Source: Clostridia bacterium (lineage in GTDB: Bacteria > Bacillota > Clostridia > Christensenellales > UBA1242). Taken from it: DNA of 64,000 nt. How positions within the stretch are numbered: position 1 is the stretch's first letter; every line of letters starts with the position of its first letter. The position numbers and the translations under genes are program-made. Of this stretch, positions 3 to 48,424 are shown in pieces. The stretch lies in NCBI GenBank assembly GCA_045635805.1, contig JAZTWI010000002.1:9693-73692 (forward strand), read 5' to 3'. Below the pieces are notes generated by a model. It saw nothing but the letters and a program-made list of their open reading frames with translations, had not been told where the DNA came from and made no database searches.

Positions 3-1778
3 CTTGCTATAGAGTATTTAATGCAATGTGGTAAGGCTGACTATACTACACTTAGTAAAAAGTTTACTAATGCCACTATCAATAAGATGATAGAAGAAGG
101 CGTACTAACCGAAGTTAAGAAAAAGGTAAGAAGGCTAAATACTGAAACTTTTGAGAAATCCACTTGTGAACTAACTAAACTACAATTAAAAGCAGTTGAA
201 TCTATAAAGAAATCTGCAGACAGGCCAATTTTACTCTTTGGTGTTACAGGTAGTGGTAAGACTGAAGTATATATGAGAGTTATAGAAGACGCTCTAAGAG
301 ATGGTAAGACTGCACTAATGTTAGTTCCAGAGATATCTCTAACACCACAGATGGTTAGAGTATTTAATAAGAGATTTGGTGCTGATGTCGCAGTCCTTCA
401 TAGTGCACTATCTGTTGGAGAAAAACACGATGAGTGGTTTAGAATCTATAATGGTGAAGCAAAAATAGTAGTTGGTGCCAGGTCTGCTATCTTTGCACCA
501 CTTGAAAATATTGGTGTTATAATTATAGATGAAGAGCACGATGGTTCATACCTTAGTGATAGTAATCCTAGATACCAGACACACGATATAGCAGAATTTA
601 GGGCTAAATACAATAAATGCCCACTAGTACTTGGTAGCGCAACTCCATCGATTGAGACTTTTTATAAAAGTGAAATACACGAGTATAATAGAGTTGAGAT
701 GCCGGTGAGAGTTAATCAAAAACCTATGCCAGGTATTGAAATTATAGATATGTGTAATGAATTCAGACTTGGTAATAATACAATGCTCTCTAGTGTAATG
801 ATGGAGAGACTAGATGAAACTATCAAGGCAAGTAACCAAGCAATACTATTTATTAACCGTAGGGGCTTTAGTTCGTATCTAATGTGTAAGGAGTGTTCGT
901 ACATACCTAAATGCACAGAGTGTGATGCAAACCTTGTCTATCATAAACAAGATGGAGTTCTTAAATGTCACTTTTGTGGTAAGAAATTTAGGGTACTCAC
1001 CAAATGTCCGGACTGTGGCAGTGATAGTATTAAATTAGGAGCGACAGGCACACAACAAGTGGTAGAGATACTTAATGATAAGTTCCCAGGGGTTAAGGTA
1101 TTTAGACTAGACAATGATGTGGTAACTACTAAAGATGCTTACTCTAAGATATTAGGGGAATTTGGTAAAACCAAACCATCTATATTAGTTGGTACACAGA
1201 TGGTAACAAAGGGACACGACTTTCCGTCAGTTGACCTAGTTGGTATAATTGATGCAGACATATCGCTATTTAATTATAGTTACAAGGCAAACGAAACAAC
1301 GTTTGCACTAATGACACAAGTATCTGGAAGAGCAGGAAGAAGTGAAACCGAAGGCAGAGTTGTTTTGCAGACATATGTTCCAAAGAACCCTGTATATCTA
1401 ACTTGTGCTAACTATGATTATCTAAAGTTCTATGATAAAGAAATAAATCTAAGGGAGACTACTAAGTTTCCACCATTTGCAAAGCTAGTTAGAATATTAC
1501 TTACTAGTGCAGATGAAGAGTTAGTTAAGTCTGCTACACATAGTTTAATACTAAAGCTCAAGAAGTTTAGGGTACAGTATGGTAAAGATTTCTTCTTCTT
1601 AGAAGCAATGAAATCACCTGTAAATAAGATTAAAAATAAACATAGATTTCAACTTGTAATGAGATTTGAGAAGAAAATTACAGATGAAGTTATGAGTGAA
1701 GTATATAAAATACTAGATGAATTACGAAATAGTAAACTCAGTGTATTTGTGGAGAATAACCCACAATCGCTCAGTTAG
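3..1778 (+). CDS. priA: Primosomal protein N' (5' part lies before the window)
   Basis: GVTGSGKT, VPEISLTPQ, DEEHD, four CxxC zinc knuckles and QVSGRAGR; frame is open to the window edge; followed by def-fmt. Confidence 0.97.
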   Translation, partial: LAIEYLMQCGKADYTTLSKKFTNATINKMIEEGVLTEVKKKVRRLNTETFEKSTCELTKLQLKAVESIKKSADRPILLFGVTGSGKTEVYMRVIEDALRDGKTALMLVPEISLTPQMVRVFNKRFGADVAVLHSALSVGEKHDEWFRIYNGEAKIVVGARSAIFAPLENIGVIIIDEEHDGSYLSDSNPRYQTHDIAEFRAKYNKCPLVLGSATPSIETFYKSEIHEYNRVEMPVRVNQKPMPGIEIIDMCNEFRLGNNTMLSSVMMERLDETIKASNQAILFINRRGFSSYLMCKECSYIPKCTECDANLVYHKQDGVLKCHFCGKKFRVLTKCPDCGSDSIKLGATGTQQVVEILNDKFPGVKVFRLDNDVVTTKDAYSKILGEFGKTKPSILVGTQMVTKGHDFPSVDLVGIIDADISLFNYSYKANETTFALMTQVSGRAGRSETEGRVVLQTYVPKNPVYLTCANYDYLKFYDKEINLRETTKFPPFAKLVRILLTSADEELVKSATHSLILKLKKFRVQYGKDFFFLEAMKSPVNKIKNKHRFQLVMRFEKKITDEVMSEVYKILDELRNSKLSVFVENNPQSLS

Positions 1779-1787
1779 GAGGAAATA

Positions 1788-2264
1788 ATGGCAATTAGAA
1801 ATGTTGTACAAATTGGAGACGAAATACTAAGAAAGAAAAGTAAACCCGTTAGAGAATTTGATGAGAAACTATGGGAATTACTAGACGATATGAAGGAAAC
1901 TATGCTAAAAAACAATGGTTGTGGACTAGCAGCAGTACAGGTAGGAGTACTTAGAAGGGCTGTTGTAATAGATGTTAACCATATGAGAATAGAATTAGTA
2001 AATCCTGAAATTATCGATTCTTTTGGCGAACAGATAGAGAAAGAAGGCTGTTTATCTGTTAAGAACGAGTATGCTTATGTAAAGAGACCAGAAGAAGTAA
2101 CAGTTAAGGCTCAAGATAGATATGGTAATGAATTTGTAATCACAGGTGTTGACTTACTTGCCAGAGCATTCTGTCACGAGATAGACCACTTAGATGGCGT
2201 ACTATTTACCGATAAGATTGTTAAGGACTACAAAGAGCCTAAATCAAAAAAGAACAATAAATAA
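1788..2264 (+). CDS. def: Peptide deformylase
   Basis: GCGLAAVQ, EGCLS and HEIDHLDG motifs; AGGAGG RBS. Confidence 0.98.
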   Translation: MAIRNVVQIGDEILRKKSKPVREFDEKLWELLDDMKETMLKNNGCGLAAVQVGVLRRAVVIDVNHMRIELVNPEIIDSFGEQIEKEGCLSVKNEYAYVKRPEEVTVKAQDRYGNEFVITGVDLLARAFCHEIDHLDGVLFTDKIVKDYKEPKSKKNNK

Positions 2265-2274
2265 GGGGTGAGAT

Positions 2275-3213
2275 ATGAAGGTAATGTTTTTTGGAACGCC
2301 TGAGTATGCGGTACCATCTTTACAGGCGATATATGATAGTAAGCACGAAGTAGTTGCTGTAGTATCTCAACCAGATAAGGCTAAGGGTAGAAGTAATAAG
2401 ATAGTTCCAACTCCAGTTAAAGAACTAGCAATGAAATATGGAACTAAGGTATTTCAGTTTGAGAAGATTAGAAAAGACGATGTGAGTGAACTTCTAAATA
2501 TTGACGCAGATATCATTGTTACCTGTGCTTATGGTCAAATAATAGGCGAAAACGTATTATATGCAAAGAAACACGGCGTTATCAATCTACACGGAAGTAT
2601 TCTTCCATATTACAGGGGCTCTAGCCCTATTCAATGGTGTTTAATTAATGGAGATACAGAGACAGGTGTTTCTATTCTTAGGTCACAGATTGGTATGGAC
2701 GATGGTCCTGTTATGGATATTAAGAGAATACCTATCACAGATGAAGATAACTCAATTACACTATTTGATAAATTATCTAGACTAAGTGCAGAGATGATAG
2801 TTCCAGCGCTAGATATGATAGAGAGTGGTAAGGCAGTATTTAAAGAACAAGAGCACGAAAAGGCTACTAAATGTGTAATGCTAAAGCCAGAAATGGGGGA
2901 TTTAGACTTTTCAAAGACAGCTAAGGAAGTAGTGGGGCTTATCAAAGGTCTTGCTTCTTGGCCAAACGCACATATGACAATTGGCGATGTTTATTTCAAA
3001 TTATACAATGCTAAAGTGTACAATAGTGATTTAGATATTAAAAATTATCAAGATGGCGAAGTGGTAATTGCTAGTAGTAAACAAGGTCTAGTGATTAAAT
3101 GTGCAGATGGATTTGTAGAAATTACAGAATTATTACCTATAAACTCAAAGAAAATGACAGCAAAAAGCTATTTAAATGGTAAAGGAATTGAACTAGGAGC
3201 GGTGGCTAAATAG
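2275..3213 (+). CDS. fmt: Methionyl-tRNA formyltransferase
   Basis: FFGTPEYA, INLHGSILPYYRGSSPI; follows def. Confidence 0.97.
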   Translation: MKVMFFGTPEYAVPSLQAIYDSKHEVVAVVSQPDKAKGRSNKIVPTPVKELAMKYGTKVFQFEKIRKDDVSELLNIDADIIVTCAYGQIIGENVLYAKKHGVINLHGSILPYYRGSSPIQWCLINGDTETGVSILRSQIGMDDGPVMDIKRIPITDEDNSITLFDKLSRLSAEMIVPALDMIESGKAVFKEQEHEKATKCVMLKPEMGDLDFSKTAKEVVGLIKGLASWPNAHMTIGDVYFKLYNAKVYNSDLDIKNYQDGEVVIASSKQGLVIKCADGFVEITELLPINSKKMTAKSYLNGKGIELGAVAK

Positions 3214-45158: not shown

Positions 45159-46244
45159 ATGATTATCTTATACATTTTACTTGCTATTGTTGTCTTGCTC
45201 ATAATGATTATGATTCATGAGACAGGACACTATCTAGTGGGTAAACTTCTTAAATTTAAGATAGAAGAATATTCTATTGGTTTCGGTAAACCAATCTTTC
45301 AGAAAACTATGAAAAGTGGTGAGGTTTTCTCTCTAAGGTGGATACCACTGGGTGGTTTCTGTGCCTTTAAGGGAGAAGATGAAGACGAAGGTGAAGAAGA
45401 AGTCTCTGAAGAAGAGAAAAAACAGTACTTCAACGCTTATGCACCTTGGAAAAGGCTACTTGTTCTAGTATCTGGCGCATTATTTAATTTTGTTTCTGGT
45501 ATTATATTTACCTTTGTACTACTTTTATCCGTTGGCTCTGGTATTTGTCAAGTTACAGATATAGTTGCTACTAATGACAATAAAAATGTACTAAATAAAG
45601 GCGATATCATCTTAGAAGTTGATGGTAGGGAACCAACATTTTTAAATGGTGGCATTGTTAAACTAATGGCAGATAAAAACGTTGGCGAAGATATAGTACT
45701 TACAATCGATAGAAATGGTGAAATTAAGGATATTACTGTTCAAAAATACCAAACCTATAAACAAGATGAAGAAGGTAATATTGTTAATGATACAGACGGC
45801 AATCCAATAGTTGAAGATAAGGTTATTGGTGTTTATACAGAGTATGTAAGATACGGCTTTGGAGATGCACTTCTTAAGTGTGTACCATATACTTTCCGTA
45901 TGGCTTGGGAGTGTTTAGTCGTTCTAGGTAATTTGGTTACAGGACAAATTGGTTTAGACACGGTTGGTGGACCTATTACAACTGTTTCTACCATTGCAAC
46001 ATCTACTCAGGCAAATATGAAGAACTTACTTCTATTATTCCCATTAATATCTGTTAACTTAGCAGTATTTAATTTGCTTCCTATTCCAGCACTAGATGGT
46101 GCTAGAGCAGTATTTGTTCTAATAGAATGGATATTTAAAAAACCTGTTCCTAGAGACCTGGAAGGTAAAATCCATACAGTTGGTTTATTTGCTCTATTTG
46201 CTCTAGTAATAGTGATAGACTTACTGCATATATTCTTATTTTAA
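45159..46244 (+). CDS. rseP: RIP metalloprotease RseP
   Basis: HETGH, IPLGGF, PDZ-like middle region, NLLPIPALDG. Confidence 0.95.
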   Translation: MIILYILLAIVVLLIMIMIHETGHYLVGKLLKFKIEEYSIGFGKPIFQKTMKSGEVFSLRWIPLGGFCAFKGEDEDEGEEEVSEEEKKQYFNAYAPWKRLLVLVSGALFNFVSGIIFTFVLLLSVGSGICQVTDIVATNDNKNVLNKGDIILEVDGREPTFLNGGIVKLMADKNVGEDIVLTIDRNGEIKDITVQKYQTYKQDEEGNIVNDTDGNPIVEDKVIGVYTEYVRYGFGDALLKCVPYTFRMAWECLVVLGNLVTGQIGLDTVGGPITTVSTIATSTQANMKNLLLLFPLISVNLAVFNLLPIPALDGARAVFVLIEWIFKKPVPRDLEGKIHTVGLFALFALVIVIDLLHIFLF

Positions 46245-46256
46245 AGGTAGATACTG

Positions 46257-47828
46257 ATGAAGATACTTGAGTATATCAATAATAAAACTAATAATGCTTA
46301 CAAGGATTTTAAACTTGTAAGTGTTATTTTTGATAAAAGCGAAAAAGAGTGTACGTTTAAATTTCTCTATAAAGATACCTGTAAGGACGATGATAGAGAG
46401 ACTCTTTCACGCCTTATAAAAGAGTATATAAATGAAGAAGTGTCTGTGGTTGTTAAACTTAAGAAAGCATATGTAGACGAAGGCTTAGTGAAGACAATTT
46501 TTAATAACTACATTAGTAGACATAATGCTAGTTTGGGTGAAAACTTTGATAGTAATGATATAAAAGTTGAAATCGATGAAACCATCAATGTAATTATTTC
46601 TTGTGGAGACTTTGCATACAATTATTTTAGTGGCCCAGATGTTAGAACAGATATTTTATCTTTTATTCAGGGATTCTTCTTTGAGCCCGTATATCTTGAA
46701 TTAGAAAGAAAAGATGTGCCACAGCAGTCTATCAATGAATTTGATTTGATTCCTGCAGAAACATTTATTCTAGAAGATACTGCTGAAACAAAAAAAATCA
46801 AGCATGTAAAAGTAAAATTATTAAATGATAAGGATAGTACTTTATTTAATAATAGTGCTATATCTATAGATAGTTTATCTACTAAAATGGAATCTGCTGA
46901 GATAGCTGGTGAGATACTATTTTTAAATGAAAAATCTTTTGAATCAAAGAGAAAAGATAAAGAAGGTAATACCGTTATTAAGCATTATTTTTCGTTTACT
47001 CTAAAAGATTCTACAGGCAGGATTAATTGTGTTTACTTCCCAACAAAAGATGGCTTTGAGACTGTTAAATCATTCTTGACTGAGAATAAAACAATAATAG
47101 TCAGTGGTACTCCAGAAGAATTTAATGGTAGGACTAATTTCAAAGTAAAAAATATGGCTGACTGTGAGATTTTACCAGAAGAAGAATCTAATGAGCCAGA
47201 GACTACAGTTGAATTCAAAAAAGAACCAAACGAAGCCTATTTATTTGTAAAGCCTGAACCATATATTGAGTTGATGCAGGACAATTTATTTGCAGTAAAG
47301 GACGAAGTTGGTAAGTATTTAGTTGATAATGATGTAGTTGTATTTGATATAGAGACTACAGGTCTAGATGCACTTACCTGTGAGATAATTGAGATAGGTG
47401 CAGTTAAGATTAAAAATGGAAGAATTGCAGAGACTTTTGAGACACTCATTAAGCCTAAGGGTCATATTCCTGATGAGATTGTTAATTTAACAGGTATTAC
47501 TGATGATATGGTTAAAGATGCTCCTAATATTAAGCAAGTATTACCAGATTTTTATAAATTCTGCTATGGTACTACCATTATGGCATATAATATCGACTTC
47601 GACTATAAATTCATAAATATCGCTGGTCTAAAGCAGGGATATAATTTCGATATGAGACAGATAGATGCTATGTATTTAGCTAGAGCATTTGTACCAGGAC
47701 TTAAGAATTTTAAATTAGGTACAGTATGTAAAAAATTAGGTGTGTCACTTGAAAACGCACACAGGGCTGTTCATGATGCTACTGCTACAGCCGAAGTTGT
47801 TATTAAACTTAGCCCTAATATTACATAA
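46257..47828 (+). CDS. PolC-derived protein: N-terminal domain, OB fold and DEDDh 3'-5' exonuclease; no PHP or polymerase domain
   Basis: At the polC position between rseP and rimP; OB fold (GEILF..., FTLKDSTG); ExoI DIETTG, ExoII NIDFD, ExoIII HRAVHDA; stop at 523 aa. Confidence 0.85.
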   Translation: MKILEYINNKTNNAYKDFKLVSVIFDKSEKECTFKFLYKDTCKDDDRETLSRLIKEYINEEVSVVVKLKKAYVDEGLVKTIFNNYISRHNASLGENFDSNDIKVEIDETINVIISCGDFAYNYFSGPDVRTDILSFIQGFFFEPVYLELERKDVPQQSINEFDLIPAETFILEDTAETKKIKHVKVKLLNDKDSTLFNNSAISIDSLSTKMESAEIAGEILFLNEKSFESKRKDKEGNTVIKHYFSFTLKDSTGRINCVYFPTKDGFETVKSFLTENKTIIVSGTPEEFNGRTNFKVKNMADCEILPEEESNEPETTVEFKKEPNEAYLFVKPEPYIELMQDNLFAVKDEVGKYLVDNDVVVFDIETTGLDALTCEIIEIGAVKIKNGRIAETFETLIKPKGHIPDEIVNLTGITDDMVKDAPNIKQVLPDFYKFCYGTTIMAYNIDFDYKFINIAGLKQGYNFDMRQIDAMYLARAFVPGLKNFKLGTVCKKLGVSLENAHRAVHDATATAEVVIKLSPNIT

Positions 47829-47906
47829 AAATACCAATTTATTTCGAAAAAGCCTTGATTTTAGATATTTATTATGATAATATAATATTGTTAATACTAG
47901 ATTACT

Positions 47907-47936
47907 AGAGTGAACATCTTAACTGACGTTCACTCT
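47907..47936 (+). promoter_or_regulatory. rimP leader hairpin
   Basis: AGAGTGAAC-N12-GTTCACTCT, resembling the AGAGTG...CACTCT hairpin before Firmicute rimP. Confidence 0.65.
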
Positions 47937-47962
47937 TAAATTTTGCTTAGGGGTGAGTGATT

Positions 47963-48424
47963 ATGTCTGAGAGAATTGTTGACAAAGCTGAAAGAATTAT
48001 TAGACCTATTGTAGAAGAACTAGGTTATGTATTTGTAGACCTAGAATATAGGAAGGACTACACAGGTAATGTTTTGGAGCTTACTATTGATAACGAGGTT
48101 GGTATCAATATAAATGACTGTGAGAAGGTTTCTAGAGCTTTAGATATTCCACTAGATGAGAATGATGTTACTGACGGCAGACCTTATAACTTTAATGTTT
48201 CTTCTTATGGCCTAGACAGAAACTTCAAGACCGATTATGATTTTAATAAACATATTGGTAAAGATGTCGATATTAAGTTCTATGCTCCATACAATGGAAA
48301 GAAACTTATAGTTGCGAGTCTTACTGCATTTGATAAAAACACTATCACTATTACCCTAGATGGTGAAGAAAAAATTATAGAAAGAAAATTAATTGCCAAT
48401 ATTTGTGCTCATATAGAGTTTTAG
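47963..48424 (+). CDS. rimP: Ribosome maturation factor RimP
   Basis: GININDCEKVSR..LD, VSS.GLDR; precedes nusA. Confidence 0.94.
   Translation: MSERIVDKAERIIRPIVEELGYVFVDLEYRKDYTGNVLELTIDNEVGININDCEKVSRALDIPLDENDVTDGRPYNFNVSSYGLDRNFKTDYDFNKHIGKDVDIKFYAPYNGKKLIVASLTAFDKNTITITLDGEEKIIERKLIANICAHIEF

Follow-up and report, generated by a model that had tools for sequence, protein, structure and literature searches.

What becomes of a replicative polymerase gene when the polymerase itself is lost? PolC is treated as a hallmark of the Bacillota and as their essential leading replicase, and the question arises at a polC locus where the gene ends after the exonuclease domain. The locus lies in a stretch of 64,000 nucleotides from a Clostridia bacterium of the order Christensenellales, family UBA1242 (GenBank assembly GCA_045635805.1, contig JAZTWI010000002.1, positions 9,693 to 73,692 of the forward strand), which is called the window here and to which the coordinates refer unless another contig is named. 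A preliminary description of the window had proposed that polC is reduced at this place to a stand-alone proofreading exonuclease bearing a clamp-binding motif. The comparisons reported here show that, within an order of uncultured gut Clostridia, an ancestor of a large subclade lost the PHP domain and the whole polymerase part of PolC. What is left of PolC, called the short form below, is a polC orthologue reduced to a KH-like N-terminal domain, an OB fold, a linker and a DEDDh exonuclease, and it has been under purifying selection since.

Domain composition of the short form

The gene and its parts are as follows, with the basis of each assignment in brackets.

46257..47828, plus strand: whole gene of the polymerase-less PolC orthologue, 523 amino acids plus stop (open reading frame (ORF) list, Pfam and NCBIfam scans, rseP/rimP slot)
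46257..46709, plus strand: residues 1-151, the N-terminal domain, which like that of PolC has two KH-like alpha/beta subdomains in tandem (AlphaFold2 predicted local distance difference test (pLDDT) 85-94, hhalign)
46719..46790, plus strand: disordered and poorly conserved spacer, residues 155-178 (pLDDT below 50; mean share of the majority residue 0.27 for residues 152-182)
46803..47171, plus strand: OB fold homologous to the PolC OB domain, residues 183-305 (Pfam, hhalign, Foldseek)
46926..46979, plus strand: conserved basic insertion in the OB fold, residues 224-241, NEKSFESKRKDKEGNTVI (gap in 10 of 10 full PolCs)
47172..47312, plus strand: linker at the place where PolC has the first PHP half, residues 306-352 (MAFFT alignment with full PolCs)
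47277..47291, plus strand: candidate beta-clamp-binding motif QDNLF, residues 341-345 (conservation in 116 sequences, docking)
47313..47825, plus strand: DEDDh 3'-5' exonuclease domain, residues 353-523, with catalytic D364, E366, D449, H502 and D507 (Pfam, TIGR00573, Foldseek)

The reading frame 46257..47828 (plus strand) begins with ATG, is intact and encodes 523 amino acids according to the ORF list. A Pfam scan of the protein detected an RNase_T domain at residues 361-514 (E 8.1e-37; PF00929 at 127.7 bits vs. a cut-off of 24) and an OB fold (tRNA_anti-codon) at residues 244-299 (E 7.4e-8), and it gave neither a PHP nor a DNA_pol3_alpha match, which agrees with the composition that the preliminary description had read from the sequence. 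The motifs that it quoted are all in the translation at the places it gave: DIETTG (D364, E366), NIDFD (D447, D449) and HRAVHDA (H502, D507) in the exonuclease, and QDNLF at 47277-47291, which arithmetic on the ORF coordinates puts at residues 341-345. The best NCBIfam match was the PolC model NF001688, over model positions 403-585 only and with 187.8 bits vs. a cut-off of 873; TIGR01405, also a PolC model, stayed below its cut-off as well (164.2 vs. 1043 bits). TIGR00573, a general dnaQ-family domain model, was passed (122.9 vs. 71.5 bits), and the proteobacterial dnaQ equivalog models were failed (TIGR01406, 92 vs. 222.7 bits; NF004316, 94.2 vs. 196 bits). The short form fails as PolC proper and is a PolC derivative by descent; it is a broad DnaQ-family exonuclease and not an epsilon equivalog.

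An AlphaFold2 model of the full protein, made from a 24-sequence alignment, had a mean pLDDT of 83.3 and a predicted template modelling score of 0.43, so that the single domains are modelled with confidence and their mutual arrangement is not. The top Foldseek match of the whole model was the PolC structure 9qpc_A (E 1.9e-17, 392 columns), and the next matches were DEDDh domains, including the Thermotoga PolC exonuclease 2p1j and the Escherichia coli epsilon structures 2gui and 1j53. Modelled alone, the N-terminal domain reached a pLDDT of 88.7 and folded into two tandem alpha/beta subdomains, the second of which matched type II KH domains (Era, KhpB, S3 and RbfA) with Z scores of 7-10. The N-terminal domain of PolC has been predicted to consist of two KH-like subdomains (PMC3919608), and the short-form model agrees with this.

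Homology of this region to PolC was established by profile comparison. A profile of 116 short forms (the window protein and 115 database proteins of 500-560 amino acids with 40-92% identity to it, the set used for all conservation figures below) was aligned by hhalign to the N-terminal regions of 10 full PolCs from within the order. Residues 1-352 aligned with a probability of 97.3% and an E value of 2.1e-11 over 275 colinear columns that include the PolC OB domain, and the N-terminal domain alone aligned with the full-PolC N-termini at E 0.0021; the PolC-like N-terminal region and OB fold noticed earlier are thus borne out. Pfam assigned no family to the N-terminal domain alone. A Foldseek search with this domain returned generic tandem alpha/beta matches (BON, the KH domains of NusA, PrgH), and the PolC N-terminal domain and tau domain V were absent among the matches listed, which is no evidence of a difference.

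Four features set the short form apart from the full PolCs. It has no first PHP half (RVELHLHT...AITDHG in the full PolCs), it stops after the exonuclease, its OB fold carries the basic insertion, in which F228, K231 and D234 are nearly invariant, and its linker shows no detectable homology to the PHP half. The alignment to full PolCs is consistent with the proposal that two separate losses took place, one of the PHP half before the exonuclease and one of everything after it. The protein ends about 10 residues past the last exonuclease helix and nothing else follows. The pLDDT of the linker is below 50 at residues 309-317, about 80 at 321-340 and about 65 at 341-350. In the MAFFT alignment a stretch of the linker, PEPY...GKYL, stood under PEAY...EGYL of PolC and was considered as a remnant of PHP; because hhalign of the linker against the N-terminal half of PHP gave E 0.41 over one aligned column, this candidate was dropped.

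The polC slot

Three further features define the position of the gene.

45159..46244, plus strand: rseP, upstream neighbour that marks the polC slot (ORF list, related loci, full-PolC loci)
47957..48424, plus strand: rimP, downstream neighbour that marks the polC slot (ORF list, related loci, full-PolC loci)
47829..47956, plus strand: intergenic gap of 128 nucleotides before rimP, without a polymerase remnant (ORF list, tblastn)

Twelve nucleotides separate the end of rseP from the start of the ORF, and the 128-nucleotide gap separates its end from rimP, in the gene order rpsB-tsf-frr-cdsA-rseP-[ORF]-rimP-nusA-ylxR-L7Ae-infB. Eighty loci were kept from a species-level scan for relatives. Of these, 72 extend far enough upstream to show the neighbour, and rseP adjoins the short form in 69; 77 extend far enough downstream, and rimP is adjacent in 74. 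The full PolCs of the order share this slot, rseP being seen in 8 and rimP in 6 of 10 loci with a full PolC and 1.5-kb flanks. The gene therefore occupies the rseP-[polC]-rimP position that the preliminary description assigned to it, in the window as in related and full-PolC loci. Its statement that no remnant of the polymerase follows the ORF held in a tblastn search with four full PolCs, which matched only the ORF and dnaE. A terminator-like hairpin of 13 pairs was found by pattern scan at 47927..47959 (plus strand), at the end of the gap, where it overlaps the start-codon region of rimP; the rimP-nusA-infB operon may have its attenuator or leader here.

DnaE1 is the only C-family polymerase of the host genome

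The host genome comprises 1.24 Mb in 16 contigs and is 98.9% complete. Its single DNA_pol3_alpha match is a 1195-residue ORF between whiA and pfkA, which encodes DnaE with PHP, alpha, fingers, HhH and OB domains. This protein passes the DnaE models NF005298 (1419 vs. 1260 bits) and NF004226, and the alpha subunit is therefore of the DnaE1 type. When four full PolCs of the order were compared with the whole genome by tblastn, only the 523-residue ORF and dnaE were matched; a search of the genome with the PolC model found nothing else of substance beyond that ORF and no separate polymerase half. The loss of the PolC polymerase suggested by the locus thus extends to the genome, where the remaining dnaE is typed as DnaE1. 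Genes for PolA, DnaN and DnaX are present. DnaE1 is the only C-family polymerase of the short-form genomes, which hold no other PolC, and it must therefore replicate both strands. Its internal clamp motif GQFSLF (QFSLF) and its C-terminal domain are kept in the short-form and full-PolC groups.

The dnaX gene of the host genome (G000) is split. On contig C13 (locus L123), an ORF of 382 amino acids at 1429..2577 (minus strand) encodes the clamp-loader core domains I-III by Pfam, and a separate ORF of 121 amino acids at 1046..1411 (minus strand) lies 17 nucleotides downstream in another frame, before ybaB and recR. The product of the latter is 34% identical (E 4.7e-8) to the C-terminal approximately 90 residues of the unsplit, 505-residue DnaX of a species of the same genus. 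DnaX was matched in 23 other genomes of the genus; its open frame is 383-418 amino acids long in 20 of them and 497-505 in the other three, compared with 524-706 amino acids in the full-PolC relatives.

Distribution of the short form

A short frame with a match to the PolC exonuclease was detected in 24 of 24 other genomes of the genus, and a PolC match over the cut-off was detected in none of the 24. These frames were mostly 519-559 amino acids long; four were shorter, three of them with internal stops or near a contig end. A DnaE match was present in all 24 genomes, in a frame of about 1200 amino acids in 22. Sixteen other families of the order were sampled, and a full PolC match over the cut-off was found in 11 genomes and the short form in five. 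Ten of those 11 full PolCs lay in open frames of 1416-1474 amino acids, and one was cut to 1158 amino acids in a genome that is 51% complete. A wider draw of 251 genomes of the order, each at least 85% complete, contained 122 with a full PolC, and the other 129 gave only short or weaker matches; the division runs between whole families. Genome size is 0.8-2.3 Mb with the short form and 1.3-4.5 Mb with a full PolC.

More than 100 protein clusters of 500-560 amino acids, recovered by a protein search, have 40-92% identity to the window protein over its full length; their sources name them "3'-5' exoribonuclease", "DNA polymerase III epsilon subunit family exonuclease" or "hypothetical protein". 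When one genome per species was scanned, a relative was encoded in at least 217. The 80 relatives kept come from many independent studies and belong, with few exceptions, to uncultured Clostridia of the gut or rumen (Christensenella sp., Clostridia or Clostridiales bacterium, Ca. Onthoplasma). With residues 1-352 as the query, 399 genomes of the class were scored, and the 10 with a match all belong to the order of the window; this query missed several short forms inside the order, so its result does not amount to absence elsewhere.

The distribution bears directly on whether the gene is a mis-assembled or recently truncated polC, or a decaying pseudogene, in a genome whose real polymerase was missed by binning. 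The metagenomic origin of every genome of the clade and the division of the host genome into 16 contigs would allow for this. The gene and both neighbours, however, lie inside a 107-kb contig, and the same architecture recurs throughout the genus sample, including assemblies of 2, 5 and 7 contigs. The independence of the source studies, the number of clusters of near-uniform length with invariant catalytic residues, and a rough completeness of 94-100% in many short-form genomes also speak against an artefact, which we consider vanishingly improbable. The short form is lineage-wide, conserved and fixed, and it is not an assembly artefact.

Two side observations were made in the surveyed genomes. 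Extra stand-alone ORFs resembling the PolC exonuclease occur in some genomes of the order, in open frames of about 320-360 amino acids and with up to 170 bits on the PolC exonuclease region (G015:C3:710424-711002, G024:C55:1796-2377, G040:C58:2365-2883, G031:C5:104262-104780 and G087:C47:108548-109063); they sit in short-form genomes or, in the case of G087, in a genome with a full PolC. In a one-contig genome of another family of the order, PolC is in pieces at G260:C1:1279050-1282924, with a 1153-residue frame (model positions 75-927) and a 296-residue frame (1230-1370), and polC may be disrupted or frameshifted in this member of a full-PolC family.

Conservation and the candidate clamp motif

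The exonuclease is the best-conserved domain of the short form. The mean share of the majority residue among the 116 sequences was 0.76 for the exonuclease, 0.56 for the OB fold, 0.54 for the N-terminal domain and 0.51 for the linker, and D364, E366, D449, H502 and D507 were each invariant (116 of 116). This invariance, which Q341 of the linker shares, goes far beyond what chance would give.

The beta-clamp pentapeptide has the consensus QL[SD]LF or, more loosely, QxxLF. The linker motif lies in a flexible stretch (pLDDT about 65). Its Q341 is invariant (116 of 116); the third position is N in 105 sequences, the fourth is L in 77, F in 35, M in 3 and I in 1, and the fifth is F in 90 and L in 26. 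The variants include QDNLF (58 sequences), QDNFL (19) and QANFL (6), as well as QPSLF, QSDLF and QVDLF. The match to the clamp consensus seen in the single sequence therefore extends to the orthologues, with the last two positions restricted to L, F, M or I and to F or L, respectively. The consensus is given as QxxLF in a recent survey of bacterial polymerases (PMC12926913). All 10 full PolCs of the order carry a QLSLF-type clamp motif no more than 10 residues from the C-terminal end, with the same variation among LF, FL, FF and LL as the short forms, and none of the 10 has a motif of this type before the exonuclease. The clamp motif of full PolC being C-terminal, the deletion removed the ancestral motif, and the conserved one of the short forms stands at a new place.

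A predicted complex of the DnaN dimer with residues 306-523, one of the structure predictions that the preliminary description had called for, scored 0.50 (runs of 0.48, 0.50 and 0.50), and the highest of its three controls scored 0.23. At least 88% of contacts were shared by the runs, and the pLDDT of the partner was at least 80. Among reference pairs, 58 of 80 solved complexes and 2 of 110 mismatched pairs pass the docking mark; with scores of 0.60 or less, only 7 of the 80 do so, as do both mismatches. Because clamp-peptide complexes have already been solved, the pass may reflect likeness to them. The score lends contact with the clamp weak support, and the prediction returned no contacts.

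The four findings by which the preliminary description could have been contradicted, namely a full polC elsewhere in the genome, full polC in close relatives, a lack of homology in the N-terminal domain and OB fold, or an unconserved QDNLF, were none of them encountered.

Evolutionary history

A tree of DnaE separated 11 short-form from 10 full-PolC genomes by one branch with a Shimodaira-Hasegawa-like approximate likelihood ratio test value of 100; the tree was made by a quick method and rooted only at the midpoint, without an outgroup. A tree of 459 columns shared by the short forms and full PolCs gave the same split (10 vs. 10), with a long stem to the short forms of about 1.8 changes per site. 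These patterns would fit one ancient truncation, followed by fast change and then by purifying selection. As no outgroup was included, the direction is taken to be truncation because PolC is the general state.

Comparison with known systems

The short form resembles full PolC in its rseP/rimP slot, in the homologous N-terminal domain and OB fold, in its closest exonuclease profile and in its best structural match. It differs in lacking PHP both before and after the exonuclease, in lacking the palm, thumb, fingers and HhH, and in having no C-terminal QLSLF; conversely, the OB basic insertion and the new Q-x-N-L-F motif in the linker are found in the short form and not in full PolC. In E. coli, epsilon (DnaQ) has a clamp-binding motif beside its exonuclease domain, and the short form likewise has a clamp-type motif directly beside the exonuclease. 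Both are stand-alone DEDDh exonucleases, the short form passing TIGR00573 and matching the epsilon folds 2gui, 1j53 and 5fkv chain D. Unlike the short form, epsilon has no KH-like N-terminal domain or OB fold, and it binds the PHP domain of alpha by a C-terminal tail that the short form does not have; the motif of the short form lies before, not after, the exonuclease.

In Bacillus subtilis, a PolC-borne DEDDh exonuclease corrects a separate DnaE (Paschalis et al., 2017; PMC5627055), the same activity as is proposed below for the short form. That system pairs a full, active PolC with a DnaE3 that has a degenerate PHP, whereas here there is no PolC polymerase and the DnaE1 has an intact PHP. 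PolC variants without the exonuclease insertion occur in Clostridia and Negativicutes (Timinskas et al., 2014; PMC3919608) and are a like case of PolC modularity, in classes that pair PolC with DnaE1. They are the reciprocal of the short form, having kept the polymerase and lost the exonuclease. Some FEN-like 5'-3' exonucleases stand alone in bacteria that have no Pol I, and some PolX-like proteins lack the polymerase region (PMC12926913); these are similar in that an accessory nuclease outlives its polymerase, but they belong to families A and X, have other nuclease folds and do not derive from a replicative C-family enzyme.

Two surveys distinguish only three C-family systems, DnaE1 alone, PolC with DnaE1 and PolC with DnaE3, and place Clostridia in the second (PMC3919608, PMC12926913); the earlier one removed fragments without a polymerase active site (PMC3919608). 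No description of a polymerase-less PolC was found in the literature searched, although the supplementary tables of these two surveys may list such fragments.

Proposed function and alternative explanations

We infer, with a probability of roughly 0.6, that the polymerase-less PolC is an active 3'-5' exonuclease that is recruited by the clamp and proofreads for DnaE1 in trans; the comparisons above establish the structural and evolutionary part of the preliminary description, whose tethered, epsilon-like proofreader serving DnaE is a candidate function. The remnant would work at the fork as a trans-acting exonuclease that is functionally epsilon-like. The sliding clamp would bring it to the primer end through the Q-x-N-[LF]-[FL] motif, which would have arisen anew immediately before the exonuclease as a replacement for the C-terminal QLSLF deleted with the polymerase, and the OB fold, by way of single-stranded DNA, and the N-terminal domain, by way of a protein contact, may assist. 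The remnant would then remove nucleotides misincorporated by DnaE1. Full PolC has this role in B. subtilis, where its exonuclease proofreads the errors of DnaE in a template-DnaE-PolC complex (PMC5627055).

Several points weigh against proofreading in trans. All genomes of the clade are metagenome-assembled, and the docking to the clamp speaks for that contact only weakly. The conserved motif, together with the neighbouring conserved segment around Y328 and P333, could be structural rather than a binding peptide. There is no epsilon-type, alpha-binding tail among the few residues after the exonuclease. In short-form lineages as in those with a full PolC, the set of nine PHP active-site residues of DnaE (HHDHEHCDH) is complete (21 DnaEs compared), and DnaE may therefore proofread alone and not require an epsilon-like partner. 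If it has such a partner, this could instead be the product of a second, divergent DEDDh-like ORF of 208 amino acids (L006:1417..2043, plus strand, on contig C1 of the host genome G000). Its product begins MNYLFFDIE, reaches 26.6 bits vs. a cut-off of 27 on PF21762, "DNA polymerase III subunit epsilon-like, C-terminal domain", and shows a weak match (E 1.7e-6) to the exonuclease region of PolC.

The intact PHP site, found in 21 of 21 DnaEs, also favours an explanation in which DnaE1 proofreads itself through PHP and the short form is a clamp-associated exonuclease of DNA repair or processing, acting in mismatch-repair excision or on damaged 3' ends and gaps and holding the polC slot by descent only. 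Clostridia usually have redundant proofreaders according to a 2026 survey (PMC12926913), the close structural matches include DinG-linked and Cas-linked DEDDh domains and exonuclease X, and an OB fold with a conserved basic insertion suggests autonomous binding of single-stranded DNA. A repair enzyme would account less easily than replisome contact for an N-terminal domain that is specific to PolC and has been kept throughout the life of the clade, nor would it readily explain why the clamp motif replaced one that was lost with the polymerase; trans proofreading by a PolC exonuclease, moreover, has experimental precedent. We regard the repair role as unlikely on balance. It is less probable still that the selected part is a non-catalytic replisome contact, in which the KH-like N-terminal domain and the OB fold bridge DnaE, the clamp loader or its detached C-terminal domain, the helicase or SSB and the exonuclease is secondary. 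The retention of these two domains (majority shares of 0.54 and 0.56) would agree with such a contact, as would the occurrence of KH-like modules of the same fold class in DnaA domain I and in DciA contact domains (Z 6.4-7.4). The division of dnaX in the genus into a 382-residue core and a 121-residue C-terminal domain indicates that replisome links have been rearranged there. The exonuclease, however, is the most conserved domain and its five catalytic residues are invariant, which argues that catalysis is under selection.

Trans proofreading of DnaE1 by the PolC remnant would, if extended, describe a novel replisome, which we put forward as a tentative and rather doubtful proposal. In it, DnaE1 would be the sole polymerase and the PolC-derived protein a perhaps essential holoenzyme subunit, an analogue of epsilon invented independently when PolC was stripped to its N-terminal domain, OB fold, a re-evolved clamp motif and the exonuclease. 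The KH-like part would anchor this subunit on DnaE or on the C-terminal domain that has become detached from DnaX. Taken further, the proposal would allow that DnaE1, and not PolC, is the main replicase of all Clostridia with the PolC+DnaE1 system, which would explain why loss of the PolC polymerase was possible only there.

Implications

Gene-strand bias has been linked to the possession of PolC (PMC3814617). The strand bias of the host genome is strong despite the absence of a PolC polymerase, about 580 of 783 ORFs of at least 150 amino acids (74%) being co-oriented with the sign of the cumulative GC skew; the count covers 10 contigs larger than 40 kb with crude ORF calling, and skew and coding strand are not independent. 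On the contig of the window (C2), 71 of 75 long ORFs lie on the plus strand, and over nearly all of the window the GC skew stays near +0.2.

Antibiotics directed at PolC have reached clinical development (PMC11963600, PMC12592400), and the one paper searched on their microbiome effects considers variant PolCs rather than absent ones. Gut commensals without a PolC polymerase would lack the drug target of PolC inhibitors, and their missing target is relevant to predictions of microbiome sparing.

The clade amounts to a natural experiment. It indicates that DnaE1 can suffice for replication in a clostridial lineage that has dispensed with the polymerase of PolC, an arrangement of which we found no description in the phylum. 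The part that selection retained is the exonuclease with the N-terminal and OB modules. As a minimal module excised by nature, this part lends itself to the question of what the unexplained N-terminal domain of PolC does.

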